A stretch of DNA of 64,000 bases from Candidatus Cloacimonadales bacterium (GCA_963665815.1 OY762463.1:1856001-1920000); one strand, 5' to 3'; positions 42,054 to 58,980 are shown, counted from the first letter of the stretch. Made by a program: numbers and translations. Notes: a model not told the origin generated them from the letters alone.

Positions 42054-42447
42054 ACTCATTCCTGTTTTAAATTTTATCTGCTATATTTGATTATACATTT
42101 TCTGTCAAGGTTTTGAGTCCGATTATTTAAATAAATAATTTCTTCAGCCATTTTGTAATGCAAAAGATCTTTACATAGTTACAACAGCTTTTCTTGATTT
42201 CTCTCGAAAATAAGTGTTGAGTTCTTATCTCATTCAAGTATAATGCTTTCATCTTCTCTGACATCCGGGATATGTTAAAAGATTTCGATAGTATGCAAAG
42301 CTGTCATCCATTATAGTAAAAAATTGGAATCCCCCGTTTTTTCTTGAAAATCTGACTTCAAGAAAATTGGAAGGATTTTTAGCAGACATTTCTTAGAAAA
42401 ATGCATTCTTCATTTTCTTTGGGTTTCGGGGGGATGCATGCTATTGT

Positions 42448-42478
42448 AAAAAAGCCTGCCGGATTAATCAGCAGGCTA
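42448..42478 (-). terminator. Intrinsic terminator after the second CTD paralog
   Basis: AGCCTGC..GCAGGCT stem followed by a T run on the minus strand. Confidence 0.75.
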
Positions 42479-42522
42479 TAGAAAACGCAATTTTGTATGA
42501 ATTAATTTGATTTAGTTTGTTA

Positions 42523-44820
42523 TTATTTCAGCAATACTGCTTTAGTAATGTCTGTTGCTTCGTTTGTTTTAACTTTAATGAAGTAAACACCGGATGCAGA
42601 GTCTGTATTACTATCTGTTTTTCCATCCCATTTCAATGCTTGCTTACCTGCACCAAATTTCCTGTCAGCTAATTGTCGAACCTTCTGTCCTTTTATGTTG
42701 TATACTGCAACATCAACATTCGATTCCTTCTTCAAATTGAACTGAATATTTGTTTCAGGATTAAAGGGATTTGGATAATTATTTAATTGAAGTCCATTAT
42801 AATCAGATGCAAGTTCTTGATCTTTTATACCTAACCTGTCAAGATCAACATCAATCACTCCATAGTAGACAGCTCCACCCTCATCGTCAACAGTATCATC
42901 TTCATTTTCCTGTACACTTGATCCATATTTGTTATCAGCATAGAATGAAACATGTAATCTGGCAACTTCAGGTGATGGTTTTTCTATTGTATTTCCCATA
43001 GTCCAGTAGACTAGGCTTTCATTAGGAAATTGAGTCCTTAGCTGTTGATCATAGAAGAAGTTCACAGTATCCGGAGGACCTGTCTGATTTTGGTAAATCT
43101 CTGTATCATATACATTGTAAAGTTCTATCGGATCCGACCAGTGATTCCCATTATCTACTGATAATACAATATGACAACCTGGACGTTCAAACATTGGATG
43201 AGTATTCAAACCAGCATCGTGTGTCCTGAAGTTCATAGCACCTTCACCATACATTGCTGCAAGCCATCTTCCGTCCTGTGATCGAGCATATCTGAAATAA
43301 TTTTCATGGAAATCCTGATCAAGGTCATGATGCCAGAGTGGTAGAAAATACTGATTCCAGGTCCAGTGCCTTAATGTATCAAGTGCACCGTCATTATCTA
43401 CATCCCAAGGTGCTCTCGGAAATACATCATCACTTAAATATGAACCATCAGGAGCTTTATTCTCAGGATGTACCGGATTAAATGTTATCATCTCCTCTTC
43501 ACTTGCCGCATCAGGATCAAACACAAATTCAATAACTTTTGTATTCATGTAAAAAGAGGTTATCATAGTGTCTGTTCCGGTATAGTTATAATACTTTGGA
43601 GTCAGTGTACTCATAACATGAAAACGACCATAATTGTCCTGAGTTGCATTCATATGAGAGCCAAAATAAATACTCCAGAAAAGACTGTCTCCAGCTGAAA
43701 TATTACCCGTTGTTGGGAAATATGAGTAAAGAGTATCTGTTTGCGGATCTCTGAACTGAGGATTTTCGAATTCGAAACTTATTCCCTGGTCGTGAGATAC
43801 AAACTCTCCCTCGCCGTAATTATTGTTATAGTATGATCTTATCGTAGGAGTCATCAATCCGAATCGATCAACTACTCCCGTTTTGTAGTAATATCCGAAC
43901 AACACTATTTCCTGACCATTTTCAGATACGCATATTCCTTTCTGAAACCTACCCCATTCATCATTGACATACATGTTCCAGTCATTCAATTCCTGAAATG
44001 TCTTGTATGTCCATCCGTTATCATCAATCTGACCTGTATTATCATTCAGATCTGCATAGGCAAATAGAATATTTTCGGAAGCTGATGCTGTAGTATCAGT
44101 GCCTGTTATCGGATTATGCGATTTATTGTTACTGGCAAACAGAAATATTCTCGAAACATCGTTATCCATTCGTCTGATGAAAATATTTGGCCAAACATAC
44201 TGATCATCTACCTGAGTTCCATAGTTACCGCCGTAATCTGAATTATCAAACACACTGATAGATGTATAACTCAGATCTTCGAGCAGGGAATACTGATCCA
44301 TAACAAGTTTTATTTCAAACTCATTATCACCATCATAATCGCTATGAAATGCAATATAAGTTCTCTGAGTCACAGGATCAATTGCCAGACTTCCATAACC
44401 TTGTCTTTGGGTAGCCGATGCTACACCAGAATTAAAGTTGACAGTTCCGTCATATCCTACCATGTAACTTTTAACATATCTGTCAGTGTTTTGCTGGATC
44501 TGTAATGACATAACCATCTGATCTCCCAGAGTGACACCGGGATTAATCGCTGCAGGGAATGGATCCTGCTTAACAATTGGATTTGTATTATAGCTTGATG
44601 GGAAATAATCATATTTTGAAGTTGTGATCAAGCTGGGAGCAACATGCCAAAAATAAGTAATGTCCTTATCATCGTCTGATGCTCTCTCCTTCAATTTGAA
44701 ATTAGAATTTTTTGCAGGAACATACCTTTTAGAAACTGAATCATCTCTTTTCATGTAATCATCCGCCAAAATCACTACTGAAAAAGAGATAATAATTACA
44801 AATACAAGTAATTTTCTCAT
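42523..44820 (-). CDS. Secreted acidic protein of unknown function with T9SS-type CTD (paralog B)
   Basis: Signal peptide MRKLLVFVIIISFSVVILA; BNR-like SVDNGNHWSDP; NYPNPFNPET..KAVLLK. GGAGG RBS supports start 44820. Confidence 0.8.
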   Translation of the reverse strand: MRKLLVFVIIISFSVVILADDYMKRDDSVSKRYVPAKNSNFKLKERASDDDKDITYFWHVAPSLITTSKYDYFPSSYNTNPIVKQDPFPAAINPGVTLGDQMVMSLQIQQNTDRYVKSYMVGYDGTVNFNSGVASATQRQGYGSLAIDPVTQRTYIAFHSDYDGDNEFEIKLVMDQYSLLEDLSYTSISVFDNSDYGGNYGTQVDDQYVWPNIFIRRMDNDVSRIFLFASNNKSHNPITGTDTTASASENILFAYADLNDNTGQIDDNGWTYKTFQELNDWNMYVNDEWGRFQKGICVSENGQEIVLFGYYYKTGVVDRFGLMTPTIRSYYNNNYGEGEFVSHDQGISFEFENPQFRDPQTDTLYSYFPTTGNISAGDSLFWSIYFGSHMNATQDNYGRFHVMSTLTPKYYNYTGTDTMITSFYMNTKVIEFVFDPDAASEEEMITFNPVHPENKAPDGSYLSDDVFPRAPWDVDNDGALDTLRHWTWNQYFLPLWHHDLDQDFHENYFRYARSQDGRWLAAMYGEGAMNFRTHDAGLNTHPMFERPGCHIVLSVDNGNHWSDPIELYNVYDTEIYQNQTGPPDTVNFFYDQQLRTQFPNESLVYWTMGNTIEKPSPEVARLHVSFYADNKYGSSVQENEDDTVDDEGGAVYYGVIDVDLDRLGIKDQELASDYNGLQLNNYPNPFNPETNIQFNLKKESNVDVAVYNIKGQKVRQLADRKFGAGKQALKWDGKTDSNTDSASGVYFIKVKTNEATDITKAVLLK

Positions 44821-45007
44821 TTCTTCCTCCATGAGTACTTTACACAATAACCAGGACAAAAATCATTATTGAGGTTCATGAATTTTGGAATTCATTTGGA
44901 AACTCCTTAAAGTTAATTGTCTTGAGGTGACAATGATGATTTTCAAATCCCATCATCGACTCCTATCAGTGCAAAGATATCTCCTTAATTCATACAATTA
45001 AATATGA

Positions 45008-45023
45008 AGCAAAAAATATTCCT
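45008..45023 (-). promoter_or_regulatory. Possible sigma-54 promoter of paralog B
   Basis: AGGAAT-ATTTT-TTGCT with GG-N10-GC spacing, just downstream of the paralog A terminator. It has A instead of T before GG. Confidence 0.4.
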
Positions 45024-45064
45024 AATCATTAATGAATTGATATTTTTTTATTGATTTATTCAAT

Positions 45065-45099
45065 AAAAAAAAAAGAGAGGAGCAAAATTACTCCTCTCT
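45065..45099 (-). terminator. Strong intrinsic terminator ending the TBDR-PorV operon
   Basis: AGAGAGGAG..CTCCTCTCT stem followed by about 10 T on the minus strand. Confidence 0.85.
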
Positions 45100-45120
45100 C
45101 TAAGCTTTAAAGCATTTATA

Positions 45121-47421
45121 CTATTTCATGAGTACTGCTTTTTTAACATCTGTAGTTTCACCTGATTGTACTTTAATAAAGTATACACCTGATGATACAG
45201 ATTTGCTTGAATTATTGTCACCTTCCCATGTAAGTGTACGTTTTCCAGCCTGCATTTTTTCGTCTGCAAGTGTTTTCACGAGCTGACCTTTTACGTTATA
45301 AACGCTTACGTTAGTGTGAGCATCTTTTTTAAGGTTGAAGCTGATTGTTGTTGTTGGGTTGAATGGGTTAGGATAATTGCTTAATTCAAGTCCATTGTAT
45401 TCCGGAGCTGAAGAATTATTGTTACCAACATGTTCTAATTTAGCGTAATCAATATCAATTACACCGTAGTATATTGTTCCACCTTCTTCATCTACTTCGT
45501 CACCTTCATTATCCTGAATAGATGAACCGTATTTGTTATCGGCATAGAATGCTATAGGAAGACGTGCTTCTCTTGGTCCTATTTTTTCAATTTTGTCACC
45601 CATATACCAGTAAATAAGTGATTCATTAGGGAACTGTGAACGAAGAAGTTGATCGTAGAAGAAGTTTACTGTATCAGGATTGTTTGGATCATCCGGATTG
45701 TCGTAAATTACTGTATCATAGATGTTATAAAGTTCGATAGGATCTGACCAGTGATTACCATCATCACCGGAAATCACGATGTGACATCCTGGTTTTTCAT
45801 ACATAGGGTGTGTATCAAGCTGGTTATCATGAGTTCTTTTATTCATTGCACCTTCGCCATACATGGCAGCAAGTAAGTGTCCATCTTCGCTGCGTGCATA
45901 TCTGAAATAGTTTTCATGGAAAGCTTGATCAAGTTCATGATGCCATAATGGAAGGAAATACTGATTCCATGTCCAGTATCTGAGAGTATCTCTTTCACCG
46001 TCAGCGTCAACATCCCATGAAACTCTTGGGAACACGCTGTCATCTAGATAAGTACCATCAGGCATTTTATCTTCTGGATATACCGGATTGAATGTAATAC
46101 GTTCTTCGTCTGTGGCTGCATCAGGATCAAAGATGAACTCAATAACTTTTGTACTGAAATAGAATACATAACCTAAAGTATCAGCACCATCGTATGAGTA
46201 GTACTGAGGGCAGATAGTATTCATTACGTGGAATCTACCTTGACCATCTTGAGTAGTCATTAAGTGTGATCCGAAATACAGATCCCAGAAAAGGCTGTCA
46301 TTTTCCATGATGTTATCATCTGTTGAGAAGTAGTAATACAGTGTATCTGTATCAGGATCTCTGAACTGAGGATTTTCTTGAGGAAGATTGATATCTTTAT
46401 CAAAAATATCGAAATCACCTTCGCCGTAATTATCGTTATAATAAACTCTCATTATTTGTTTTCTGAAATTGAAACGATTTCTTGTATCATCTTCTGTATA
46501 GTAACCGTAAAGAACAATTTCTTGTCCGTTTTCTGAAACATAAATACCTTTTTGGAAACGTCCCCAATTATCATTGTCATAGTTATTCCATGCATTCATT
46601 GTAGGGAATGTTTTGTATGTCCATGCATCATCAGGGATAACGGCTGATGAACCTGTAATGTCAGCATAAGCAAAAAGAACATTTTCTGAAGCTGCTGCTG
46701 TAGAGTCATCACCAGTAATAGGGTTATGTGACTTATAGTTGTTACCGAAAAGAAAGATCCTAGAAACACCATTAGGCATAGTTCTGATAAACATTGTAGG
46801 CCAGATATATTCATCATCAACCTGTGTTCCGGCTGTTCCACCGTAAACCTCGTTATCAAAAGAACTAACTGCAGTATATGAAAGAGCTCCGGTAATTGAA
46901 TACTGGTCTGTTACTGCTTTCATTTCATATTCACCGTCACCATCAAAATCTGAGTGGAATGCGATGTAAGTTCTTTGAGTATTAGGATCGATTGCAAGAG
47001 TAGGATAACCTTGTCTCTGTGTAGCTGATGCAACACCTGCATCATCAACTTGAGTACCATCGTTGCTTACAAAGTAACCTTTTACATAACGGTCTGTGTT
47101 TTGTTGAACTTGAAATGTCATAACCATCTGGTCACCGAGATCACCGGCAATACCAGAAAATGCTTTTTGATATGTAAGTGGACGATTCTGATATGCTCCA
47201 GGGAAGTAATCATATTTTGAATCGACAACTGGTTGCGGAGCTACATGCCATGAATATTCAATATCCTTTTCATCGTCAGAAGCTCTATCCTTAAGTATAC
47301 TCTGTGGGTTTTCCACAGCAAATTTCTTTGACTGTTTCTTCGGCTGAGATTTCATAAAATCAGCTGCAAATAATCCTAAAGAAACAGAAAGAATAAGAGT
47401 TATTATTAATAACTTTCTCAT
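45121..47421 (-). CDS. Secreted acidic protein of unknown function with T9SS-type CTD (paralog A)
   Basis: Signal peptide; long blocks shared with paralog B (GVASATQRQGY, WGRFQKGI, WTWNQYFLPLWHH); SGDDGNHWSDP; NYPNPFNPTT..KAVLMK. Confidence 0.8.
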   Translation of the reverse strand: MRKLLIITLILSVSLGLFAADFMKSQPKKQSKKFAVENPQSILKDRASDDEKDIEYSWHVAPQPVVDSKYDYFPGAYQNRPLTYQKAFSGIAGDLGDQMVMTFQVQQNTDRYVKGYFVSNDGTQVDDAGVASATQRQGYPTLAIDPNTQRTYIAFHSDFDGDGEYEMKAVTDQYSITGALSYTAVSSFDNEVYGGTAGTQVDDEYIWPTMFIRTMPNGVSRIFLFGNNYKSHNPITGDDSTAAASENVLFAYADITGSSAVIPDDAWTYKTFPTMNAWNNYDNDNWGRFQKGIYVSENGQEIVLYGYYTEDDTRNRFNFRKQIMRVYYNDNYGEGDFDIFDKDINLPQENPQFRDPDTDTLYYYFSTDDNIMENDSLFWDLYFGSHLMTTQDGQGRFHVMNTICPQYYSYDGADTLGYVFYFSTKVIEFIFDPDAATDEERITFNPVYPEDKMPDGTYLDDSVFPRVSWDVDADGERDTLRYWTWNQYFLPLWHHELDQAFHENYFRYARSEDGHLLAAMYGEGAMNKRTHDNQLDTHPMYEKPGCHIVISGDDGNHWSDPIELYNIYDTVIYDNPDDPNNPDTVNFFYDQLLRSQFPNESLIYWYMGDKIEKIGPREARLPIAFYADNKYGSSIQDNEGDEVDEEGGTIYYGVIDIDYAKLEHVGNNNSSAPEYNGLELSNYPNPFNPTTTISFNLKKDAHTNVSVYNVKGQLVKTLADEKMQAGKRTLTWEGDNNSSKSVSSGVYFIKVQSGETTDVKKAVLMK

Positions 47422-47462
47422 TTTTTCCTCCTCAATTCATACAATTTATATTGTTTTAGCAA

Positions 47463-48521
47463 TTAATATTCCATTTTTATTGTTAAACGGTGAGCACTTT
47501 CAATGAATGACTCTTCAAGCCATCCCATTCTTGAATATGAATAATCAACACTGAATATACCTATTGATGACGGTATTTTTAATCCTAAACCATAGTTAGA
47601 AGGCATAACGGCTTCAAAACCATCGTATCTTTCTTCAAGGTCAGTATTAAATTGTTTACCGGTTCTTAAGTATAAAAGACTATATTTGTACTCAAATCCA
47701 AGGTTGAAGGATTCTCTTCTGTCAACACAGTTGTTGATCTGAAAAGCTCCCATAAGGTATGTAAGATCTTCTCTTGTCTGATACAGATCGATAGAAAGCC
47801 CGAATGAAAAATTCATTGGTATTTGAGATGTAAGATTGTCACCATCTTCATCAACTTCACCATCGCCATCATTATCAAGCAAATCGAACGGATCTTCACC
47901 ACTTCTGCCATCACCATCCTCATCAATATCAAACTCAACTTCACCACCGAAATTGCTCAAAGCCATACCAATAGTAAGGTTTCTCCAGTGTGTGTTATAC
48001 TGAGATCCAATATCAAATGCAATAGTATTTACTGCGTATTTATACAATTCTTCTCTGAGATATTTACCTGTAAATCCAAATGAGAACTTATCAGTAAATT
48101 GTCTACTGTATGTAAGACCAGTACTGAGAGCCATACATGTAAACTTTTCACCTGTGAATCCTTCTTCTTCTGTTGTGATTTCCATATCATCCATATGCAT
48201 CATATAAGCATGGAATGCAAATACTCCGAGATCATTGTAAAAGGATGCTGCAAAATAATCAAACATAATGTCTGCAACATAATCAGTATGAGAAAAGAAA
48301 AGCTGATTCTTCTCTTTTAAAGCAAGACCACCTGGATTCCAGTATGTAGATGAAATATCATCTGATACTGCAACATAGGCTTCTCCCATACCAATCGCGC
48401 GTGCATCTGTGGTAATTTTCAGAAACTGCATATCTGCAGTACCTGTTTTTGAGAAAACTTCTGCAAACATGTTTGAGGCAAAAAGAGAAATTACGAATAG
48501 TGTAATAAGTATTTTTTTCAT
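47463..48521 (-). CDS. PorV/PorQ-family outer-membrane beta-barrel
   Basis: Signal peptide; KTGT..QFLKI..DARAIGMGEA..DISSTYWNPGGL; C-terminal DYSY..HRLTIKMEY. Confidence 0.8.
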   Translation of the reverse strand: MKKILITLFVISLFASNMFAEVFSKTGTADMQFLKITTDARAIGMGEAYVAVSDDISSTYWNPGGLALKEKNQLFFSHTDYVADIMFDYFAASFYNDLGVFAFHAYMMHMDDMEITTEEEGFTGEKFTCMALSTGLTYSRQFTDKFSFGFTGKYLREELYKYAVNTIAFDIGSQYNTHWRNLTIGMALSNFGGEVEFDIDEDGDGRSGEDPFDLLDNDGDGEVDEDGDNLTSQIPMNFSFGLSIDLYQTREDLTYLMGAFQINNCVDRRESFNLGFEYKYSLLYLRTGKQFNTDLEERYDGFEAVMPSNYGLGLKIPSSIGIFSVDYSYSRMGWLEESFIESAHRLTIKMEY

Positions 48522-48531
48522 TTTTTACCTC

Positions 48532-51500
48532 CTACTTGATTATTACAAATTTGTCGACTTGAATTTCTTTAGTCTTCAAATCTCTTATTGAATAAAGATA
48601 AACACCGGCTGTGATAACCTGATCGTTTTTGGAAAGCATGTCCCAAGGGTGCATACCTGATCCGGCTAAAGCTTCGTTTCCATCTTTACTTACGTTAATT
48701 ATATCGTAGAATGTCTCACCATGATGCTCGAATTCATCAACTAAGTCTCCGGCAAGAGTGTAAACTCTGATTTCGCAATCTTCCGGTAAGTTCATAAACC
48801 ATATTCTCTTACTCTTATCACCCTTTGTATCATTCTCAATTCTTCCGTCAAAAGAAGATTGACCAATATAAGGATTTGGTACGACAAAAATATCGTCCAT
48901 GTTCTTTGAACTTGTTGCTCCCGGGAAATAAGCCATTTTGTTAGCATCTTTTCCACTTTCAAGATATTGAAGATTGTTTGCCGGCATACCGCGGTCGAAT
49001 GCTGTCACAGAAATATAATATTCCACGCCAACAGGTAAATAATCAATTTCAGCCTTGTAGTATCTTGATGCAAGTCTTAAATCTGAATTATCATTGAAAT
49101 ATTGAGCATCCAGAAGGTCGTTTTCACCAAGGTGTTCTTCAATAGGTATTAACTTGTCATCATATAATGCAAGATAAATTTCTGCTGAAACATCAGGATT
49201 CTTCATGATAAGAGCTTCAAGTATAAAAGCTTGATCGTGGTAATCCGGATTATATTTCTTATTGACTGCCGGATTCTTTAAATCTGCAAGATATTCATTG
49301 ATCTTATCGATGTCATTCATTTCCGGATCATAAAGAGGATAACCATATATTTTATCACCAATCTCATAATTTACTAATTCATAGTTTTCATTATAATGTT
49401 TATAAACCATATCATTTTCATCAGCGAATCTGGCGTTAGGTAAGCCTTTGTCTACACCAAGATCTCCACCGAAATCTGTGAAGTTAGCAGCAGGATTGTT
49501 TTTAACGATATCATAATCTATCATATCCTGATATGTATCAACTTTATCCCATCTTCCTGACATTTCCCAGAATTCAGATTCTCCTCTTCCCTTTTTACTC
49601 CAGAGAGAATATCCCTGGAAGTCATGTCTAAGTCTGTTACCTGTTACCGGATCAATAATAGCATTTTCATTTAACTGCTTTGCAGGAATTCCGGTAAGAT
49701 CAGGCAAATAACTTGGAAGTGCAGAGTTCTGATCCTGATATCCCATCTGTTCATCACTTACAGTCATATAATCTACAGTGAACTCGGATCTGTTATCCCA
49801 GTATACATTAAGTCTTTTTCCATCTCTCGATAAAACTGATGTCATTTTAGGGAATTGAGGTGGTTCAGGTGGATTATAATGAGGGAAAGTGTCTGGTTTA
49901 ACAACATTTGTTAAAGATTGAGCTTCACCGTAAATCTGTTTAGCCCAAGCTGATGTTTGTTTAAGTTCTTCAACTGTTTCTCCAGGGAACACAGCGATAA
50001 CAATCTTCATTGTTTTACCGGGTTCAAGATTCCATGACTCCTCTGTTGGATTATCTGATAAACCCTGCATATCACCATAGAATGCAAAAAGATATCTTGT
50101 ATCGTCAGGAGAATCTACTTGCTTTTCAGGAAAATCCCTTAGAGAAGTAAACTTATCTGTGTTAGGGTTTCTATCTGTAAGAAGCCAGTACTTTTCATTA
50201 TTTGTTCTTTGACCTGTCAGTAAATCTTCCTGAGTAGGTTTTGTGTCATTAGGACCATCACCTCTATTCCAGAACCAGCAGGCAAACTCAAGATTATCAG
50301 GGTCAGGAGTACAAACTCTTGATCCAATCATACCGGTTGTAAGACCACCGTCTTTATCTTTGTCGTATGTGTAGGCAAATTCAAACCCTTTACCTCTTAC
50401 ATAACTACTGACATCATCCTTTGATCTTTCATCACCCTGCCAGGACTGAGGTCCAACGTCAGAGTCCATATAAATACCCATAGCACAATCATAGAGAGTC
50501 TCTTCACTATCTAAGTTCATGTTTGTTATATCGAACTCAACATATACAAGGTTTTTGATATAATCATAACTCCATTGATAACTCATCTGTCTTACCTGAA
50601 TATTCAGGGATTTGTGATCTGAAGATACAGCTTGTTGACCAAGATCTCTTTCAGGTCCTGTAGCAAGAATAGGAGAATAATCATAATAGTAACCAATCAA
50701 ATCCTGTTCAGATATTGGAAAACCATCTTCATCAATGATTCCGTCACCATCATCATCAACTAACTCAGTCATTGAGCCTGTTTCCCCGCTGCTTACAAGA
50801 CTATCAGCTATTGATAAATCCTGGAATCCAAGAGGGAACCAGATATTGATATTATCTTCGATTATATCATTTGGATTATTTGCTCCGTAGAAAAATCCTG
50901 GATAATCTTTACCAAAGCTGTCAAATACTTCAGGAAGTTCATTTCCATTTCTAAACGGAACTGCAGTACCTACGGGGTCTTCATCAATTTTACCATCATT
51001 ATCATCATCAACTCCACGTCTGTGTTCACGAATTGTAGCTTCAATGACTTCATCGGTATTGGTATATATATCATATATATTGTTATGCTGTGAGTTAAGC
51101 ATTGGTTTATCAATTCTATTAAACAACGGAAGTAATTCATAAATACTTGCATCACCATCAAATCCAACTGACACGAGTGTATCGATGACAGGATTATTGA
51201 TATAAACAGGATCCCAGCCATCATCACCTTCAGCCATTGTTCTGCGAGTACTATCTACTTTCACAGAATCATCATATTCATACTCATAATAATAGTATAG
51301 TCTCTGGTTTAGACTGTTCAGTCTGTATTTTTTTGCTCCGAACCATAATGCTCCTTGAAAAAGGTAATCTATGGAACTTCCTTTAGGGTACTCCAGAGAA
51401 GGCCAATCCCCATTGGAGCCTGATCCAAAGAATCCATAATTAGAAACTCTCAAGCTTATGTTACCTTTATCGTGATACTTATCAATATCCAATTGCTTTT

Positions 51501-51594
51501 TTGCTCTATGCTGGTCAACCATCTCAGCAGAAGCAAAGCATGTCAGACTGATTAATATCAGAAACATAAACCATTTTGAATTTAATTTGCTCAT
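48532..51594 (-). CDS. Large secreted protein (1020 aa) with FN3-like segment and divergent VPNPY-type CTD
   Basis: Signal peptide; SNYGFFG..EYPKGS..YLFQGALWFG, QMSYQW, DSDVG, YYISVTAFD and VVPNPY..NLP..VYTLAGDLV..GVYLY..KFVIIK. Confidence 0.75.
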   Translation of the reverse strand: MSKLNSKWFMFLILISLTCFASAEMVDQHRAKKQLDIDKYHDKGNISLRVSNYGFFGSGSNGDWPSLEYPKGSSIDYLFQGALWFGAKKYRLNSLNQRLYYYYEYEYDDSVKVDSTRRTMAEGDDGWDPVYINNPVIDTLVSVGFDGDASIYELLPLFNRIDKPMLNSQHNNIYDIYTNTDEVIEATIREHRRGVDDDNDGKIDEDPVGTAVPFRNGNELPEVFDSFGKDYPGFFYGANNPNDIIEDNINIWFPLGFQDLSIADSLVSSGETGSMTELVDDDGDGIIDEDGFPISEQDLIGYYYDYSPILATGPERDLGQQAVSSDHKSLNIQVRQMSYQWSYDYIKNLVYVEFDITNMNLDSEETLYDCAMGIYMDSDVGPQSWQGDERSKDDVSSYVRGKGFEFAYTYDKDKDGGLTTGMIGSRVCTPDPDNLEFACWFWNRGDGPNDTKPTQEDLLTGQRTNNEKYWLLTDRNPNTDKFTSLRDFPEKQVDSPDDTRYLFAFYGDMQGLSDNPTEESWNLEPGKTMKIVIAVFPGETVEELKQTSAWAKQIYGEAQSLTNVVKPDTFPHYNPPEPPQFPKMTSVLSRDGKRLNVYWDNRSEFTVDYMTVSDEQMGYQDQNSALPSYLPDLTGIPAKQLNENAIIDPVTGNRLRHDFQGYSLWSKKGRGESEFWEMSGRWDKVDTYQDMIDYDIVKNNPAANFTDFGGDLGVDKGLPNARFADENDMVYKHYNENYELVNYEIGDKIYGYPLYDPEMNDIDKINEYLADLKNPAVNKKYNPDYHDQAFILEALIMKNPDVSAEIYLALYDDKLIPIEEHLGENDLLDAQYFNDNSDLRLASRYYKAEIDYLPVGVEYYISVTAFDRGMPANNLQYLESGKDANKMAYFPGATSSKNMDDIFVVPNPYIGQSSFDGRIENDTKGDKSKRIWFMNLPEDCEIRVYTLAGDLVDEFEHHGETFYDIINVSKDGNEALAGSGMHPWDMLSKNDQVITAGVYLYSIRDLKTKEIQVDKFVIIK

Positions 51595-51621
51595 TAAATT
51601 CCTCCAATTTATTATACTTTT

Positions 51622-52263
51622 TTATTCTAATGTGAAATTCAAGGCAAACTCAAGCCATACAGCTACTGGTTCTCCCTGAAATTTTGCAGGTGTGTATTCA
51701 AATTTTTTCACTGCATTGACAGCTGCTTCATCAAGTCCTCCGGGACCTGGCATCAGCGATCTGACTACAACTACTTCACCTACAGTTCCATCTTCGTAAA
51801 TCTCAACTCTGAGACCAACGTTACCTTCTATCTCAAGTTCCTTAGCAGTTTCCGGGTATTCAGGTTTTACCTGTTTAATTAACACAGGTGGATCCTCAAA
51901 CATTTGGAATATTGGAGTTTTTCCACGAGTTTTAGGTGGAGCTTTTTTCTCTTCAAATTGGCTGATAGCAGTATTCTCAATTGTTTCAATGATTGATAAT
52001 TCATCTTCTTCAGATTCTTCACCAATATCATCAATAACAATTTCAAGATCCTGAACTTTTTGTTCTTCCGGAGGCTTAATTTCATCCGGTATGTCTTGAA
52101 TAACGTCTTGAACAATTACATTATCAGCAACTTGAATGTCTCTTGCTTTCACCTTAATCTCAGGTGTTACCAGAAATGCAAACAGAGCTAGTAAAACTGT
52201 CAGGCTAAGACACTTTTCATAGTAAGTACTCGCTACATCTTTCCAGTCATGATACTTTTTCAT
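51622..52263 (-). CDS. tonB: Energy transducer TonB
   Basis: N-terminal TM helix, acidic linker and TonB_C domain PEYPETAK..IEGNV..LDEAAVNAV..PAKFQGEPV. Confidence 0.88.
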   Translation of the reverse strand: MKKYHDWKDVASTYYEKCLSLTVLLALFAFLVTPEIKVKARDIQVADNVIVQDVIQDIPDEIKPPEEQKVQDLEIVIDDIGEESEEDELSIIETIENTAISQFEEKKAPPKTRGKTPIFQMFEDPPVLIKQVKPEYPETAKELEIEGNVGLRVEIYEDGTVGEVVVVRSLMPGPGGLDEAAVNAVKKFEYTPAKFQGEPVAVWLEFALNFTLE

Positions 52264-52271
52264 AATTCCTC

Positions 52272-52682
52272 CTAAAGCTTCTTGGCCTCAAACGTAACTG
52301 TAAGAGCTTCTGCTTCTCTCAGCTTGTTCATAATATCAGCCATAACGCCATATTCAGCTTTCGTATCAGTTCTGAATGCAACAATCATATTAAAATTCTG
52401 TGCAAGTTTCCTCTGCATAGTCGGACTAATCATAGGAATTGTAAGAATTCTGTCATCAACTGAGATTTTTCCACTTCTGTTTACATATACCGTAACCGCA
52501 TTCTTTCTTGGAATCTTTTTAATAATTTCTTCATGAGCCTTTGGCATAGTGATCCGCAGACCTCTTTCTTTTACAAAGACTGTTGAGACCATAAAAAATA
52601 TTAATAAAAGAAATGCTATATCCGACATTGACGCAGTGGGAATCAGTGTTTCAGGTTTTGACTGTTTTTTAATATTTGCCAT
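52272..52682 (-). CDS. exbD: ExbD/TolR family protein
   Basis: PTASMSDIAFLLLIFFMV with the conserved TM Asp. Confidence 0.9.
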   Translation of the reverse strand: MANIKKQSKPETLIPTASMSDIAFLLLIFFMVSTVFVKERGLRITMPKAHEEIIKKIPRKNAVTVYVNRSGKISVDDRILTIPMISPTMQRKLAQNFNMIVAFRTDTKAEYGVMADIMNKLREAEALTVTFEAKKL

Positions 52683-52691
52683 TTCCCACTC

Positions 52692-53114
52692 CTAATTTGT
52701 ACCTAAGGATATTTTCTGAGCACCTGCCATACGAAGCCTGTCAAGTACATCAACCATATTCTTATAGTTACTTTTTCTATGAGTTTTTAATGAGATAACC
52801 ATATCAGGATTATCGGATACAATTTTATTTACCATACCTTTAATCTCTGACAATGCAACTTCTTGCGGCTCATTCTTTCCAACTTTAATTTGAATCTTCC
52901 CGTCCTGACCAACCTGGATCTTCGTAACATTTTCTGCCTGAAGTTTGACCTGGTTTTCTGTTGTATCTGATTTAACAGGAAGAGTTAAGCCTATACCTTT
53001 TTTAATATCAAATTTTGTTGTTGTAAGAAAGAAAACAAGAAGAAGAAAAGCAACATCTGAAAGAGATGCTGTGGGGATGCCCCCTAAATTTCTTTTTTTC
53101 TTTCTAATGAACAT
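52692..53114 (-). CDS. exbD: ExbD/TolR family protein
   Basis: PTASLSDVAFLLLVFFL with the conserved TM Asp. Confidence 0.9.
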   Translation of the reverse strand: MFIRKKKRNLGGIPTASLSDVAFLLLVFFLTTTKFDIKKGIGLTLPVKSDTTENQVKLQAENVTKIQVGQDGKIQIKVGKNEPQEVALSEIKGMVNKIVSDNPDMVISLKTHRKSNYKNMVDVLDRLRMAGAQKISLGTN

Positions 53115-53948
53115 CTATTCCCCCTGATTTTCTACCAGAGTTTCAATAAGTCTTTCTGAACCTTTTTGCATGTCAATAACCATTCCGTCTACCATTGACA
53201 TGAACATGTTGTTAAAGAATTGAACAGGAATAGCAACAGCAAGACCGGCTGCTGTTGTGATAAGAGCTATTTTAATACCGGAAGCAACAATTGTAGGGTC
53301 CACTTCACCGGCAGCAGCGATATCATCAAATGCTGTGATCATACCAATAATTGTACCAAAGAAACCAAACATAGGCGCAAGGTTAATAGTTGTGTTAAGT
53401 GGAACAAATCCTTTTTCAAGGAAAGCCATTTCAAGAACACTTGCAGCTTCGATTGCTTTTTCAACTGCTTCAACGCCTTTGTCAACTTTAAGTAAAGCCA
53501 TTCTTACGATTACTGAAACAGGTCCTCTTGTTTCTTCACAAAGAGTAATTGCTTCGTCGTATCTTTTATCTTTTACTAAAGGTAAAAGCTTATCAAGAAA
53601 ATCTTCTACTTTAATTTTAGCATATTGTAATGATACAAGTTTCCAGATGATTGTTGCAATCGCCCATAAAAGCAGAATAAGGATTGGCCACATTGTGAAT
53701 CCACCCTGGATAAATATATTAACCGCAGTGCTTCCGAATATAGCTTTTGCAAGTTTTTCCATTCCACCAACTTCTGGTGACTCTTCCATTTTATCGTCTG
53801 AAACGGCTGCTTCTGTCTCCTGAACAGCCTCATTTCCAACTGCTGTGCCTTCTTCCATTACTTCAGTTTCCTGGGCAAACAAATTGCCTGCGAAAACTAA
53901 CTGAAATGCGAACAGTACTATCAGTAACATGATACTACTTTTTCTCAT
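53115..53948 (-). CDS. exbB: ExbB/MotA/TolQ proton channel
   Basis: GGFTMWPI, APMFGFFGTIIGMI and GIKIALITTAAGLAVAIP motifs; N-terminal signal peptide and acidic extension. Confidence 0.92.
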   Translation of the reverse strand: MRKSSIMLLIVLFAFQLVFAGNLFAQETEVMEEGTAVGNEAVQETEAAVSDDKMEESPEVGGMEKLAKAIFGSTAVNIFIQGGFTMWPILILLLWAIATIIWKLVSLQYAKIKVEDFLDKLLPLVKDKRYDEAITLCEETRGPVSVIVRMALLKVDKGVEAVEKAIEAASVLEMAFLEKGFVPLNTTINLAPMFGFFGTIIGMITAFDDIAAAGEVDPTIVASGIKIALITTAAGLAVAIPVQFFNNMFMSMVDGMVIDMQKGSERLIETLVENQGE

Positions 53949-53985
53949 TCTTGTATCCTCCTTAATATCAATTATTATTTTAAAA

Positions 53986-56900
53986 TTAGAATTTATATGA
54001 AAGTTCTAAACGGAATGTTCTTCCGTCTGTTCTATTATTTGGATTTGCTGATGAAAGATAATGTACATACTTCATATCCTCAGAAACAAAATCAGATACT
54101 CCTGTAGATAAGTCAGCACCATCTTCGTATGGATCACCTGTTTTTGAGTAAACATTGACTACATTTCTTTTATCAAACAAATTATTTATTGTAAATGTAA
54201 CAGCAAACTGTTGTTTTTCTTTGAATTCTATATTTTTTCTGAAGAAGAGGGATGCTTCATCAACATAATCCTGCTCTTTACTATATTTCTCAAGAGCTCT
54301 GTCATCTTCATTAACTGGAGTGTAAGGTCTTCCAGAGCTAAAAGTGTAATTAAATCCTGTATTAAATCCACCTTTCCAGCCAAAAGGAACGTTGAAATCT
54401 GTTCCGGGAATGTAAATCTCATCATCTTTAGCAATGATATAATTCATTCTGAATTTAGCACTGTGTCTGATATCCCATGGAAGCCTGAATTCTCTGAGGC
54501 TTGTACGAGTAATTTCAGGAGTAGCACTGTCATTATTACCTTTAGACCATGAAAGTGAGTATGAGAGCCCCATACTAACATGATTTTCACCATTAATTTT
54601 ATTAAGTTCAATTTCAAGTCCTCTTGAACTACCGTAATCTTCAGATACATATTGGAAATATTTAATATCAGTATCAGTATCAAGAGTATCAAACTTTGTA
54701 CTCACATAGTTATAAATGTTTTTATAATATGCTTGAATTGATATATCATAATCTTTAAAATCATCTGCAAACTGGTGTTGGTAACCAACTTCATATGTCA
54801 CAGTAATCTGTGGTTCAAGTTCTGAGTTACCAATCGGGTCATTACCTACATCATCAACTGCAGGATCTTTTGTTGTAAAAATGTGTTTCATATTAGGTAA
54901 CTGATTCTGATAGTTATAAAGGAATGATACATTATCTCTCTCAGAAATCGGATACAAAATACCAAATCTTGGAGAAATAAGTAATTGAGATGTGTCTCCA
55001 TCAAATTCCATTTTTCTGAACCCACCATCAATTTCCTGAATTTCGTAACTGTCATGTAAATACCACCAGTCAAATCTTAATCCGGCATTAACTTTCATAC
55101 CTTCAAAAGTGAACTGATCCTGAATGTAATAAGCCGCCTGCCATGGAGATGCTTTATAACCTTCTCTTTGACCGGCAGATCGCATTATCATATATCTGTA
55201 AAATTCCGGTTTGTAATAATAAATCCTTGTATCATCACCATTATCACCATGCATTACTAATACTGAGTCGCAAATATCATTTTCAGGATAATATTCCCAA
55301 TCAAGATTATCATCAATTGCTATTGTTCCTGTTGGATTTAAATCTAACTTATCAAATGCAATATAAGCGTTGTTGTTAACTTTACCTTCATCATAGTATG
55401 TCAGATTGTTAGCATCATCTCTTTCAATGAAATGTCTCTGGATCTCCAGACCGGTTTTTATCTGATGACCTAAATCCAATGGGTTATACTGAAAATCAGA
55501 TCTGAATTGAATGTTCTCAGTTGTATTGTCCTTAACTGAAGCAAAATATGATCCCGGAGGTGAGTACCCCTGAATCGCTTTATCAACATCATCTGCCTTT
55601 TCATTCCATTTCCATTGGTTAGCTTTTAAATAACCGAGACTGTCAAGAACACCGTCTGAATCTCTATCAATACTATAAACACCATAATATTCCAGAATTG
55701 GATTATAATTAGCATAGTCAAGTTTCCAGAAGTCACCTTCACTTAATTGACGAGGAGATTCCTTTGTGTTCTTCTTATAATAAGAAGCTTTCACCTTGAG
55801 AATGTTACCACTGAAGGTATAGTCATAATTACCTACAACCTGCATCAGAGAGTTCTCAGTAACTGCAAAGTTTTCAAGTGCATATTTCATTGATTGATTA
55901 TAAGGATAATTCTTGGAATTCTCTCCCCTGACAGCAATTGTCATTTTCTGAGAAGGAGTGAATGCATACTTGAATTTTGAGTTGTAATTATATGAATTAT
56001 AATTTCTTTCATCAATATCAATACCAAGAAAACTGTCTCTGTCTTCATAAGGTCTATTGTCAACATTATAAATCTCATTAGCTAATAAATGTCTACCCCC
56101 AAAAGTATAATCTTCATAAGGATTATTCTCTCTCCACTGACCGTCTCTACCATCTGATCTGGCAAGAGCGGCATTAATAAAGAATGTGAACTTTTTGGCT
56201 AAAACATCATTAAATGGAAGTATAGGTCCTCCAAGCGTGAACGCAACTCTATCATAATTGTATCCATCTACCAGAAAGTGATCTGTAGAATACTTGATAG
56301 TTCCTTCGTATTCTTCTGTACCGCTTTTTGTAATAATATTCATTACACTTGACTGTGAGTTACCATACTCTGCAGGGAAACTGAACATTTGAGAAGTAGT
56401 GTGAACAGCGTCCATATCAACTGAAAGTGCAGCACCACCATCAACAGGGTCACTAACCTGCATACCGTCAATCATAATTGTTGTTTCATTAGCTCTTCCG
56501 CCACGAGCATGAGATACTCCGCCAACTGTCACTGTTCCGGGAGACTGTGCAATAAGATCATTAATACTTTCAATATTCTTTTCTTCAAGATCTCTGGAAG
56601 TATTCTGACGTTTACTTGTACCCGCAGTCGCATTCAGTCTTTTTACTTTCTGTCCCGTTACTACTATAGGACCAGTCTTTATAGCATGAACACCAAGTTT
56701 AACATTCAGAGTTCTGGTTACATCAAGCTGAATCTCAATATCTTCATAAACTGTTTCCTGATAGCCCATTCTCTTGAATTTAACAACATACTTACCGGGG
56801 TACAAACCGACTATCTGATATGCTCCCTTTTCTGATGTCATTCCATTACCTTGCAAATCATCGCCAAGATAAACAAGAACGATCGCTCCCTGCAATGGTT

Positions 56901-57009
56901 CGCCTTGTTCGTTCTTCACCTTCCCGACTAAATTACCCGTCTCTCCGGCATGTAGAGCTATACTTGCTCCAAAGCATATTAACAGAAGCAGCAATTTTAC
57001 TTTCCGCAT
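53986..57009 (-). CDS. TonB-dependent receptor with N-terminal carboxypeptidase-regulatory-like domain
   Basis: Signal peptide; TGNLVGKV..PGKYVV..GYQ; plug HARGGRANE..IDG..PAEYGN..NIITKSG; barrel NAGLRFD, SPRFG, GNSELEP, INNLFD; C-terminal Phe. Confidence 0.9.
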   Translation of the reverse strand: MRKVKLLLLLICFGASIALHAGETGNLVGKVKNEQGEPLQGAIVLVYLGDDLQGNGMTSEKGAYQIVGLYPGKYVVKFKRMGYQETVYEDIEIQLDVTRTLNVKLGVHAIKTGPIVVTGQKVKRLNATAGTSKRQNTSRDLEEKNIESINDLIAQSPGTVTVGGVSHARGGRANETTIMIDGMQVSDPVDGGAALSVDMDAVHTTSQMFSFPAEYGNSQSSVMNIITKSGTEEYEGTIKYSTDHFLVDGYNYDRVAFTLGGPILPFNDVLAKKFTFFINAALARSDGRDGQWRENNPYEDYTFGGRHLLANEIYNVDNRPYEDRDSFLGIDIDERNYNSYNYNSKFKYAFTPSQKMTIAVRGENSKNYPYNQSMKYALENFAVTENSLMQVVGNYDYTFSGNILKVKASYYKKNTKESPRQLSEGDFWKLDYANYNPILEYYGVYSIDRDSDGVLDSLGYLKANQWKWNEKADDVDKAIQGYSPPGSYFASVKDNTTENIQFRSDFQYNPLDLGHQIKTGLEIQRHFIERDDANNLTYYDEGKVNNNAYIAFDKLDLNPTGTIAIDDNLDWEYYPENDICDSVLVMHGDNGDDTRIYYYKPEFYRYMIMRSAGQREGYKASPWQAAYYIQDQFTFEGMKVNAGLRFDWWYLHDSYEIQEIDGGFRKMEFDGDTSQLLISPRFGILYPISERDNVSFLYNYQNQLPNMKHIFTTKDPAVDDVGNDPIGNSELEPQITVTYEVGYQHQFADDFKDYDISIQAYYKNIYNYVSTKFDTLDTDTDIKYFQYVSEDYGSSRGLEIELNKINGENHVSMGLSYSLSWSKGNNDSATPEITRTSLREFRLPWDIRHSAKFRMNYIIAKDDEIYIPGTDFNVPFGWKGGFNTGFNYTFSSGRPYTPVNEDDRALEKYSKEQDYVDEASLFFRKNIEFKEKQQFAVTFTINNLFDKRNVVNVYSKTGDPYEDGADLSTGVSDFVSEDMKYVHYLSSANPNNRTDGRTFRLELSYKF

Positions 57010-57124
57010 TAATAGGCCTCCCTTTATCTATTTAAAAATATTTTTTTTCATCTGACAAAAACATTCCGAGAATTGTTAGATGTCAATTAATTTTTGTAAT
57101 AATAACTATCAATAATCGTTCCAT

Positions 57125-57955
57125 TTAAAACGATCTGTTTAAATTCCAAGATTCTGAAGCGTATTTTTCTTCCAACAGTTTATTTGTAAAAGCTTGTTCT
57201 GAATCTGTCAAAAGGCTTGAATAAACAAAATTGTCAGTTTCCCAGTTTTTTTCAAATCCTCTGGCAAGAATTTCTGAGACTTCAGTAAATGTATATTGTT
57301 TTATTGTAGTATGTGCGTTAATAAATGTCGTTTTTTTTGTTAACAGTCGGGACAAACGTAAACGTTGTTTACTATCAAGTTTTTTCATTATGAATGCAAC
57401 TTCAGACTGATCATAATCTAACTGAATAGATCCATGCTGTAAAAGATATCCGTCCCTGCGAAGCTGTGCTGAACCGACAATCTTCCTGTTGTCAACCTTG
57501 AGTTCATACCTCGAACTTGATGTAAAACACGGATTACCTGCCATTCTCTGTTCACCGGAACTTAGGAATCCTTTTTCAAACTCCACCGGAACACCAAGGT
57601 CTGACAATCCAACTGCAAGGGCTTGACTTATTTTAGCATATGATTCCGTAACACCTGATCCGCCAAAAACCGATACCGGAGCAGTAATACAGTAAGTTAC
57701 CTCCATTTTATGAAGAACAACTCTACCGCCTGTAGGTCTGCGTACAAAATCCCAGCCATTCTCTTTAAGAGTCAGAAAATCTATCTCTTCTTCTGCATTC
57801 TGATGATAACCGCATGAAATTGTCGGATTATTCCAGTCATAAAATCGAATTGTCGGAATAGAATCTCCGCTTTTTAAACCTTGCATTAAAGCTTCATCGA
57901 CAGCCATATTCTCGGCTGCCGATCTTTTATTATCCAGAATTATTCGCCATTGCAT
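57125..57955 (-). CDS. Lipoate-protein ligase A family / octanoyltransferase LipM-like
   Basis: NMAVDEAL, VRRPTGGRVVLH, CF, KIVGSAQ and LQHGS motifs. Confidence 0.9.
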   Translation of the reverse strand: MQWRIILDNKRSAAENMAVDEALMQGLKSGDSIPTIRFYDWNNPTISCGYHQNAEEEIDFLTLKENGWDFVRRPTGGRVVLHKMEVTYCITAPVSVFGGSGVTESYAKISQALAVGLSDLGVPVEFEKGFLSSGEQRMAGNPCFTSSSRYELKVDNRKIVGSAQLRRDGYLLQHGSIQLDYDQSEVAFIMKKLDSKQRLRLSRLLTKKTTFINAHTTIKQYTFTEVSEILARGFEKNWETDNFVYSSLLTDSEQAFTNKLLEEKYASESWNLNRSF

Positions 57956-58980
57956 CAGAAACTGAGCCTTACCTTTTCAGCAGTGTCACCCTTGACAATT
58001 TCTCCGACAGGAATCCCATCAGTAGCTGAAATTATTTTATCAGCATTATCTTTATCTGCTACTACCATGAATCCTATTCCCATATTGAAAGCACTGTACA
58101 TTTCAGGCAGTTCCACGTTTCCTGCATTCTGCATGAAATTAAACACTGCAGGAGTCTCCCAGACTTTCGTATCTATCTCTGCTCTGAGTCCATCAGGAAT
58201 AATCCTCTTGAGATTACCAACAATACCGCCACCGGTAATATGAGCCATACCATGTACAAATTCCGGCAATGCCCATTCTTTAAGTTCAGGATAATATGAT
58301 TTATGTATACTGAGCATTACTTCTGCAACAGTCTTACCGCATTCCGGTATTATACTGTCCACAGTCATTTTCTGCTTATCAAAAATTATCTTACGGGCAA
58401 GAGAATATCCATTTGTATGAAGTCCGGTAGATGAATAGCCAATAACAATATCACCTTCGGAGATACTTTGACCGGTAATAATGTTATCTCTTTCAATCAG
58501 ACCAACGATTGTTCCGGCAAGATCAAAATCATCTTCGCTGTATATTCCCGGCATTTCAGCCATTTCTCCGCCAATGAGAGCCATTCCGTTTTCCTGACAA
58601 GCTTTGGAAAAACCGGAAATAATTTTCTCAATCACTTCTGGATGCAGTTTACCAACACCAATATAATCAAGAAAATACTGTGGATGAGCTCCCTGTACGA
58701 AAATATCATCTACACAATGATTAACCAAGTCCTGTCCAACCGTGTCGTAAATACCAGCCATAACAGCTATCATTAATTTAGTACCGACTCCGTCAGCACT
58801 TGAGACAAGCACAGGTTTCTTCCATTTTTCAAGGTCTATATTATAAAGACCTCCAAATCCGCCAATATGACTGAGAACATTCTCATTAAAAGTCTTCTTC
58901 ACAAGTGGTTTAATTCTTGAAACAGCATTTTCTCCGGCATGAATATCTACACCGGCTTCTTCGTAAGTTAGTTTTCCCAT
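57955..58980 (-). CDS. purM: Phosphoribosylformylglycinamidine cyclo-ligase
   Basis: YEEAGVD, DGVGTK, GGEMAEMP, GLHTNGYSLAR, HITGGG and FNMGIG motifs. Confidence 0.97.
   Translation of the reverse strand: MGKLTYEEAGVDIHAGENAVSRIKPLVKKTFNENVLSHIGGFGGLYNIDLEKWKKPVLVSSADGVGTKLMIAVMAGIYDTVGQDLVNHCVDDIFVQGAHPQYFLDYIGVGKLHPEVIEKIISGFSKACQENGMALIGGEMAEMPGIYSEDDFDLAGTIVGLIERDNIITGQSISEGDIVIGYSSTGLHTNGYSLARKIIFDKQKMTVDSIIPECGKTVAEVMLSIHKSYYPELKEWALPEFVHGMAHITGGGIVGNLKRIIPDGLRAEIDTKVWETPAVFNFMQNAGNVELPEMYSAFNMGIGFMVVADKDNADKIISATDGIPVGEIVKGDTAEKVRLSF

Follow-up and report, generated by a model that had tools for sequence, protein, structure and literature searches.

Does a bacterial operon in which a TonB-dependent transporter (TBDT) and its motor stand side by side with a secreted protein, an outer-membrane barrel and cargo belonging to type IX secretion (the T9SS) encode one machine, and if so, which way does that machine transport? 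The question is raised by a stretch of 64,000 nt from Candidatus Cloacimonadales bacterium (GCA_963665815.1 OY762463.1:1856001-1920000), which was analysed over its whole length and is referred to below as the window. At positions 42,523-57,009, the window holds a run of eight open reading frames (ORFs), all on the minus strand and lying between 57009 and 45121, whose products are, in this order, an Oar-class TBDT, ExbB, two ExbD proteins, TonB, a secreted protein of 1020 residues that will be called X, a barrel of the PorV/PorQ family, and paralog A, a propeller protein with a T9SS C-terminal domain (CTD); a second protein of this kind, paralog B, is encoded downstream of the run. The answer that we tentatively favour, with a probability of about 0.45, is that the locus encodes an import system that has neither a SusD protein nor lipoproteins, and in which the surface partner of the transporter is anchored by a cognate carrier barrel of the T9SS type. 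The TBDT, the Ton motor, the PorV/PorQ-family barrel and the CTD cargo are all of kinds already known; what is new is their combination, together with an X family that has its own class of CTD-like tail and a dedicated barrel, and the lack of a lipoprotein partner.

According to this import reading, expression of the Oar-class TBDT would go hand in hand with that of an ExbB-ExbD-ExbD-TonB motor and of surface accessory proteins belonging to the transporter. X would be exported by Sec and would then cross the outer membrane in T9SS style, to be kept on the surface by a PorZ-like CTD that stays bound to the PorV/PorQ-family barrel encoded by the neighbouring gene, in the way known for PorZ-PorQ, PorU-PorV and the type B cargo with PorP/SprF carriers in Bacteroidota. 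Paralogs A and B, which bear type A CTDs, would be displayed or released nearby and would supply substrate specificity, so that a polymer would be caught by X and the propellers, possibly cleaved as well, and handed over to the transporter, which TonB would open with the proton-motive force. The surface anchoring, the joint action of X, the propellers and the transporter, the direction of transport and the kind of substrate (peptide or glycan) are the points that we infer.

The tail of X and the neighbouring barrel

X (48532..51594, minus strand) begins with an all-beta module that takes up its N-terminal and central parts and contains acidic DxDxDG motifs, and it ends with a C-terminal domain of 175 residues. 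It has no match in Pfam, and no Pfam family recurs among 35 of its diverse relatives. A word-index search recovered 476 relatives, the top 120 of which are about 50% identical to X and, where named, are each a "hypothetical protein" of Cloacimonadota, and an exhaustive search returned 1500 representatives at E<=1e-3, a number that falls to 454 at 1e-10 and to 82 at 1e-30. In a domain map drawn from the best 149 relatives, 83 proteins of approximately 600-1100 residues share the 175-residue C-terminal domain, 51 of these also sharing the N-terminal and central stretches. In about 23 further proteins (approximately 650-1400 residues), the N-terminal/central module is paired instead with an ordinary T9SS type A CTD (10 of the 11 scanned), and, since it can be carried on type A CTDs in this way, the body of X behaves like a cargo module. 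The closest neighbours of X in a language-model comparison are unannotated clusters from Cloacimonadota and Eiseniibacteriota.

The tail of X (residues 840-1020; 48532..49077, minus strand) appears to be a divergent beta-sandwich resembling T9SS CTDs, in which the elements VVPNPY, YTLAGDLV, GVYLYS and KFVIIK succeed each other; at the family level, the motifs read VVPNPY, NLP..C.IRIYTLAGDLV, WD..S...Q.IASG.YLFS and GKFVIIK. It matches neither the type A nor the type B CTD models, even at relaxed E values of 0.01 to 10, and finds a weak match in the model of the PorZ C-terminus (E 0.0085, 14.5 bits), one that is shared by the ortholog P0121 and by four of 11 distant relatives. When aligned by hhalign to the type A CTD of paralog A, it gives a probability of 78.8% and an E value of 1.6e-5 over 59 columns. 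A similar direction is indicated by the AlphaFold model of X, which is of moderate quality (predicted local distance difference test, pLDDT, 66.7; predicted template modelling score, pTM, 0.58) and mostly beta. The best Foldseek match of this model in the PDB is PorZ (5m11, E 1.8e-4 over 157 columns), followed by PorU (E 1.6e-3 over 191 columns) and by the beta-sandwich N-domains of GH116 and cellodextrin phosphorylase (approximately 1e-3); all matches have template modelling (TM) scores of at most 0.15, and beyond the PorZ/PorU tail and the sandwich of the GH116/cellodextrin-phosphorylase type they are treated as uninformative. Searches of PDB sequences with X, either as a single sequence or as a profile, gave no match. 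Taking sequence and model together, we read the tail of X as a divergent, insert-bearing, PorZ-like member of the CTD fold. The initial annotation had spoken of CTD-bearing secreted proteins; both paralogs do carry type A CTDs, whereas the tail of X falls outside the type A and type B thresholds, and the signs of its relatedness to these domains are weak. A divergent PorU was also considered as an identity for X and was ruled out, as there is no gingipain-like C25 domain, NF033707 gives no match and the modelled core is a beta-sandwich.

The gene that follows (47463..48521, minus strand) encodes a FadL-like outer-membrane barrel of 352 residues, which matches the PorV/PorQ-family model NF033709 over residues 29-351 with 180 bits (cut-off 90); the model is also matched by all 32 orthologs scanned, the one from candidate division KSB1 included. 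The name "PorV-like barrel" given initially holds at this family level but not at the level of equivalogs, where the scores stay below the respective cut-offs for PorV (75.1 of 250), PorQ (85.8 of 220) and PorV2 (60 of 325). When the barrel was modelled in complex with residues 840-1020 of X, the three scores obtained were 0.89, 0.90 and 0.90, compared with 0.00 for the best of three controls. Contacts agree by at least 88% between runs, and the partner has a pLDDT of at least 70. The mark used for judging such scores is reached by 58 of 80 solved complexes and by two of 110 mismatched pairs, counts that are rough here, own alignments having been used. In the predicted interface, residues 903-908, 945-952, 988-1004 and 1011-1019 of X face residues 25-36, 82-85 and 110-129 of the barrel, among others, and the contact residues of X are those of the conserved family motifs. 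The cognate barrel is thus predicted to hold the C-terminal domain of X, in line with the initial proposal that a dedicated PorV paralog holds a CTD protein of the locus.

Both predicted partners also display acidic motifs of the DxDxDG type, resembling calcium-binding ones: X at residues ~195-210 and ~279-293 (GVDDDNDGKIDEDP and VDDDGDGIIDEDG), and the barrel in an acidic loop at residues ~198-228 (DIDEDGDG...DNDGDGEVDEDGD). These motifs are invariant or nearly so in the alignments and lie outside the predicted interface.

In the T9SS of Bacteroidota, linkage of the cargo gene to a carrier gene is the rule for type B CTDs (PMC12618676), and, more generally, the gene for cargo with a CTD other than type A typically neighbours that for a carrier barrel of its own, by which the cargo is anchored on the surface (PMC12618676 and PMC10994853). 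X and its barrel fit this pattern of cognate cargo and carrier. The disulfide coupling of carriers to GldK by cysteines (PMC12635249) concerns SprF and PorG, not PorV, and was not used here.

Conservation in Cloacimonadota and in a KSB1 locus

In order to see how constant the arrangement is, contigs were scanned with the pattern I[RQ][IV]YTLAGD, by which 523 of 529 stretches were confirmed. All locus counts given here cover the best 80 of these 523, namely 79 loci from Cloacimonadota and one from KSB1, and were obtained by searching the proteins of the window against all ORFs of the loci. Where at least 6 kb lie upstream of X, the TBDT, ExbB, both ExbD proteins and TonB are encoded there in 52 of 54 loci. 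The two exceptions are L056, where one ExbD is unmatched and genes are split, and L012, where the whole set is missing. L056 has X, the PorV-like gene and pfkB in two pieces each, which suggests frameshifts or assembly errors in the record. TonB is found immediately upstream of X in 63 of the 68 loci with at least 1 kb on that side, and the PorV-like gene comes next in 69 of the 75 loci with at least 1.3 kb downstream (67 by the distance rule, to which L023 and L037 were added, where the longest ORF shares more than 150 nt with X). A gene similar to paralog A is present in 50 of the 61 loci with at least 3.8 kb downstream of X and absent from the remaining 11.

The run is also tight throughout. 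From the TBDT to paralog A, the spacers in the window measure 37, 0, 9, 8, 27, 10 and 41 nt, reproducing the eight closely packed minus-strand genes with gaps of 0-41 nt that had been noticed at the outset, and the corresponding medians in the relatives are 24, 9.5, 9, 7.5, 14, 10 and 25 nt (n=50-71 loci). In the relatives, by contrast, purM and the TBDT gene are never closer than 169 nt, the median distance being 196 nt (n=43). As the order is found again in relatives whose proteins are no more than about 50% identical, the arrangement is more than chance, and the comparison shows a compact unit conserved within Cloacimonadota.

Seven loci without these partners (L012, L021, L022, L028, L058, L063 and L071) hold a second X copy, with no TBDT, Ton or PorV-like gene in the flanks covered. 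For five of them, the same assembly also has a linked copy; the other assemblies among the 80 loci showed one X locus. In a FastTree phylogeny of 72 full-length X copies rooted at the midpoint, the five unlinked ones of full length form a single clade nested among the linked ones, so that these copies would stem from one late duplication. In L012, the unlinked X is surrounded by genes for further CTD proteins and for a two-component pair of the sigma-54 kind, as well as by a 1035-aa ORF (19231-22338, minus strand) that has no Pfam match and is not a relative of X by phmmer.

The single locus from KSB1 (L080) differs in its layout. Its X-like protein has 2332 relatives, of which those bearing a name belong to candidate division KSB1, Ca. 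Oleimicrobiaceae among them, and to Calditrichales. The same-strand run encodes, in order, this X-like protein (741 aa), an 893-aa protein, a 525-aa fn3 protein, a 915-aa TBDT with CarboxypepD_reg, Plug and OMP_b-brl_3 domains, a 353-aa PorV-like barrel and an NHL propeller, with spacers of at most 31 nt or overlapping ORFs. No ExbB, ExbD or TonB gene is present in the 15 kb around the run. That the transporter, X and the barrel keep company in a second phylum as well, though differently ordered and lacking the motor, argues for their coupling and against a merely inherited neighbourhood. The triad of a TBDT, a VPNPY protein and PorV, which the initial annotation had mentioned for FCB-associated phyla, is hence present outside Cloacimonadota in one KSB1 locus.

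The 893-aa protein encoded after the X-like one (L080 5118-7799, plus strand) combines weak matches to DUF5689 and an OB-fold with a CTD-type Ig domain, and two relatives of X, P0128 and P0130, carry a Lamin Tail Domain. Domains of the DUF5689/OB-fold and Lamin Tail Domain types occur in extracellular nucleases, which hints at a possible nucleic-acid substrate.

Transporter, motor, propeller proteins and flanking signals

The first gene of the run (53986..57009, minus strand) encodes a protein of 1007 residues with a signal peptide, a CarboxypepD_reg domain at residues 27-105 (PF13620, E 1.9e-13, 51 bits against a cut-off of 32.3), a plug region at about 110-268 and a long C-terminal barrel region ending in ...LSYKF; a putative TonB box, PIVVTG, was spotted by eye at about residue 113. 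With a profile built from 26 orthologs, the plug domains of the colicin I receptor Cir and of FepA, PfeA and YncD are recovered at E values of 1.3e-8 to 2.4e-6 (up to 2e-5 for PDB plug domains). Scanned one by one, all 26 orthologs have CarboxypepD_reg, 24 have Plug and six have any barrel family (PF00593 in two, OMP_b-brl_3 in three and OMP_b-brl_4 in one). Relatives with a name, which come from Cloacimonadota, are called "TonB-dependent receptor" or "carboxypeptidase regulatory-like domain-containing protein". For the copy in the window, the barrel region matches no Pfam barrel family, no NCBIfam model is matched by the protein, SusC/RagA included, and a phmmer search of PDB with the single sequence gave one match only, at chance level. 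The initial assignment to the TonB-dependent receptors therefore stands by way of the ortholog plugs and of CarboxypepD_reg, whereas in the window copy alone the call is weaker, Plug (PF07715) remaining sub-threshold (E 0.024, 15.6 bits against 23.9) and a barrel family lacking. Judged by its domain architecture, the first gene product is a TBDT of the Oar subclass.

The motor is encoded directly downstream, on the same strand, by genes for an ExbB-type proton channel (53115..53948; 277 aa, including an acidic extension and, at the N-terminus, a segment that resembles a signal; MotA_ExbB 93.6 bits, cut-off 22.9), ExbD 1 (52692..53114; 140 aa, ExbD 78.6 bits, cut-off 25.4), ExbD 2 (52272..52682; 136 aa, ExbD 72.9 bits) and TonB (51622..52263; 213 aa), the latter with a membrane anchor, an acidic linker and TonB_C at residues 133-212 (66.5 bits; tonB_Cterm 44.6 bits, cut-off 27.1). 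The whole Ton set, i.e. MotA_ExbB, two ExbD and TonB_C, thus lies above the Pfam cut-offs and is encoded together. With regard to the NCBIfam equivalogs ExbB, TolQ, ExbD, TolR and TonB, the motor proteins fall below every cut-off, and the subtype, ExbBD as opposed to TolQR, rests for this reason on the adjoining TonB.

Paralog A (45121..47421, minus strand; 766 aa) has a signal peptide, a beta-propeller with one Asp-box and a type A CTD at residues 683-763, with 43.1 bits for Por_Secre_tail and 42.5 bits for TIGR04183 (cut-off 23). Its model, a beta-propeller plus CTD, has a pLDDT of 70.4 and a pTM of 0.71, and its Foldseek matches include PL24/PL25 ulvan lyases, a PL42 rhamnose-glucuronate lyase, GH145 and sialidases, with E values from 4e-9 and target TM scores up to 0.58. 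A profile of paralog-A orthologs has a weak match to the Asp-box region of sialidases (sialidase/BNR). The protein is 26-31% identical to its Cloacimonadota counterparts, compared with about 50% for X, and is encoded in one to four tandem copies per locus. Being variable, duplicated and enzyme-like in fold, paralog A behaves as a substrate-specific accessory gene and not as core machinery.

Paralog B (42523..44820, minus strand; 765 aa) is encoded as a separate unit about 300 nt downstream of paralog A, to which it is 63% identical over 770 columns; it likewise has a type A CTD, with 42.1 bits for TIGR04183 (cut-off 23) and a match to Por_Secre_tail. The TTG start originally listed for it (44859) is too far upstream, the alignment starting at residue 14 of that ORF, and the true start is the ATG at 44820, which is preceded by GGAGG at a distance of 7 nt.

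Between the two paralogs, the eight-gene run is closed by an intrinsic-terminator-like hairpin with a T run (45062..45101, minus strand), the 13-bp stem of which starts at 45101 and ends at 45072; with a folding energy (dG) of -19.2 kcal/mol and a z-score of -4.66, it is equalled by none of 200 shuffles, in agreement with the strong terminator recognised at the outset. A second terminator-like hairpin stands behind paralog B (42453..42477, minus strand; dG -15.4, z -3.63). At the other end, 115 nt upstream of the TBDT gene (57010..57124, minus strand) are presumed to contain the promoter, and GGGAGG is found there 8 nt ahead of the TBDT start. A promoter scan was uninformative, with 64 sites compared with 71.9 expected, and an Rfam scan of 42000-58000 yielded nothing at the gathering score, and hence no riboswitch or leader upstream of the TBDT gene that would name a substrate.

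The N-termini of the six non-cytoplasmic proteins resemble, by eye, signals for signal peptidase I, and a lipobox-like pattern is rare in relatives, being seen in one of 35 for X, one of 26 for the TBDT, none of 32 for the PorV-like barrel and two of 32 for paralog A. Models of SusD or SusC/RagA matched none of the 47 window ORFs scanned (14 in one set of scans and 33 in another, at 1e-5). The lack of a lipobox and of a SusD partner, claimed initially, is borne out by these scans. Family scans of the window ORFs revealed no sprA-like gene in the 64 kb.

Elsewhere in the window, three more proteins carry type A CTDs: one with three PKD domains and a beta-helix (20304-23339, plus strand), one with PKD (23585-25174, plus strand) and one resembling C45-family acyltransferases/hydrolases (40524-42059, minus strand), the last encoded directly downstream of paralog B. 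A Na+-translocating decarboxylase cluster (33069-40088, minus strand) comprises OAD beta, a protein bearing a pair of biotinyl stretches, OAD gamma, a carboxyltransferase and a glyoxalase-type epimerase-like protein; it is followed by subunits of a 2-oxoacid:ferredoxin oxidoreductase, which fits the genome of an amino-acid- or propionate-fermenting member of Cloacimonadota. Finally, two ORFs of 438 and 511 aa (1073-2389 and 2361-3896, both minus strand) have no Pfam match at E 1e-5.

Import, export or separate modules

Several observations weigh against the import reading. Only one of the 80 loci comes from outside Cloacimonadota, and within that phylum the conserved order reaches unrelated housekeeping genes, with pta, an aminotransferase gene, pfkB and purM also kept upstream in most loci, so that order alone is weaker evidence of coupling and is partly plain chromosomal synteny. 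To judge by the unlinked second copies, X can apparently work without adjacent partners. The high score of the complex model may reflect likeness to solved complexes, as structures of CTDs with their carriers already exist (PMC10994853), and is no measure of binding by this particular pair. No substrate, binding fold or catalytic site was recognised in X by Pfam, PDB sequence and fold searches, and the propeller match of paralog A is one of fold only, at about 10% identity. Taken as a whole, the initial interpretation has held as to a compact conserved unit that lacks SusD and has a barrel predicted to hold X, but not as to the barrel equivalogs, and the gene order counts for less than it did.

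Two other explanations leave the transporter out of the work of X. X and its barrel might be part of the type IX machinery of Cloacimonadota itself, as the counterpart of the PorU-PorV or PorZ-PorQ attachment complex, with the TBDT and Ton proteins sharing an envelope operon and acting separately. X followed by the barrel would then mirror the porU-porV gene order of Bacteroidota, and such a role would suit a protein that is about 50% identical across the phylum, with two X loci in five assemblies and one in the rest (among the best 80 of 523), and whose tail resembles the retained CTD of PorZ; PorZ is also among the fold matches of paralog A, likewise a propeller with a CTD (E 7.8e-7), and the at least five type A CTD proteins of the window need machinery of this kind. 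We nevertheless consider this unlikely: X has no gingipain-like C25 domain, no NF033707 match and an all-beta modelled core, its module, joined to type A CTDs in 10 of the 11 relatives that were scanned, looks like cargo, and paralog A is variable, duplicated and absent from 11 of 61 loci, unlike a core component. The KSB1 locus, moreover, keeps the TBDT with X and the barrel despite its different order. That same locus bears on the second explanation, by which two unrelated modules, one being the organism's general Ton system along with a single TBDT and the other a T9SS pair of cargo and carrier along with additional cargo, would be neighbours through inherited synteny and would share transcription only. 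The housekeeping synteny upstream and the existence of unlinked X copies speak for it, as does the general knowledge that ExbB-ExbD-ExbD-TonB clusters serve many transporters in other bacteria. It is rendered improbable by the fact that the TBDT, X-like and PorV-like genes again form one tight run in KSB1, in another order and with no motor, and by the spacing, as gaps inside the run measure 0-41 nt in the window and have medians of 7.5-25 nt among the relatives, compared with at least 169 nt between purM and the TBDT gene.

The transporter could also work in the opposite direction. In Myxococcus xanthus, the genes tonB1, exbB1, exbD1 and exbD2 accompany that for the Oar protein, on which secretion of the protease PopC depends (PMC6434023), and apart from Oar/PopC no TBDT is well documented to act in export. 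Since Oar and its Ton system (Ton(Oar)) comprise the same gene set, the composition of transporter plus motor has a characterised parallel and the export model a precedent, which the initial annotation had not named. In an export or surface-assembly scheme energised by TonB, the Oar-class TBDT, whose CarboxypepD_reg-plug-barrel architecture is that of Oar, would move X and/or the propellers outward or extract the carrier-cargo complex, as Oar does for PopC. Each T9SS role, i.e. barrel, carrier, CTD cargo and ExbBD-like motor, finds its counterpart in the operon, and the step of the T9SS that requires energy is the release of the carrier-cargo complex (PMC10994853). Against this stand the KSB1 triad without a motor, the other type A CTD proteins of the window, which imply a general export route, and the nearly exclusive role of characterised TBDTs in import, so that we regard export as very unlikely. 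The same low standing is given to its extension, namely that in Cloacimonadota, KSB1 and related phyla an Oar-class TBDT plus a PorV-like carrier might constitute a TonB-powered export or surface route for CTD proteins of the "VPNPY type", and thereby a second pathway of secretion resembling the T9SS, with ExbBD-TonB and a 22-strand barrel replacing PorLM and SprA.

Three known systems come closest to the locus. The similarity to Oar/Ton(Oar) consists in a TBDT with a CarboxypepD_reg extension and a plug, the genes for a single ExbB, two ExbD and a single TonB being found along with it; the known Oar client PopC, however, lacks a CTD, a PorV-like barrel plays no part there, and the barrel region of the window TBDT matches no Pfam barrel family. 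With PorZ-PorQ and PorU-PorV of Porphyromonas, and with type B CTD cargo and PorP/SprF of Flavobacterium, the locus shares a secreted protein with a CTD-like tail encoded beside a FadL-like barrel that it is predicted to bind. It differs from them in that type A and type B models alike fail to reach threshold on the tail of X, X has neither a PorU nor a PorZ body, the barrel scores below the PorV, PorQ and PorV2 equivalog cut-offs, and the pair sits inside a TBDT/Ton operon in hosts outside Bacteroidota. The SusC/SusD loci of Bacteroidota also encode a TBDT together with surface accessory proteins (predicted in our case) and with variable, duplicated, enzyme-like genes, and the variability and tandem copies of paralog A resemble the substrate-specific genes of polysaccharide utilisation loci. 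In contrast to SusC/SusD loci, there is here no SusD family protein and no lipoprotein, the TBDT has no SusC/RagA match, anchoring is proposed to occur by a CTD and a barrel instead of a lipid, and the Ton motor is encoded inside the locus.

Literature searches found no published description of this operon combination, or of T9SS core genes in Cloacimonadota; none of the papers searched combined Cloacimonadota with GldK, SprA or GldN, or with TonB in a relevant manner, or PorV with related candidate phyla, and the papers linking Cloacimonadota with the T9SS do so only via CTDs or by citation. Were the export reading true, the single case of Oar/PopC would be generalised to a widespread secretion route. 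If, on the other hand, the import reading is true, phyla outside Bacteroidota would perform surface capture and TonB-dependent import without lipoproteins, by tethering the capture protein to a carrier barrel. The X family, with its 1500 representatives at E<=1e-3, 2332 matches from the KSB1 member and no Pfam model, would gain a testable role, and the tail of X would constitute a third class among the domains that sort or anchor proteins in the T9SS manner, one with a carrier of its own. Cloacimonadota are abundant fermenters of anaerobic digesters and anoxic sediments, and the import reading, if true, would bear on how they take up their substrates.

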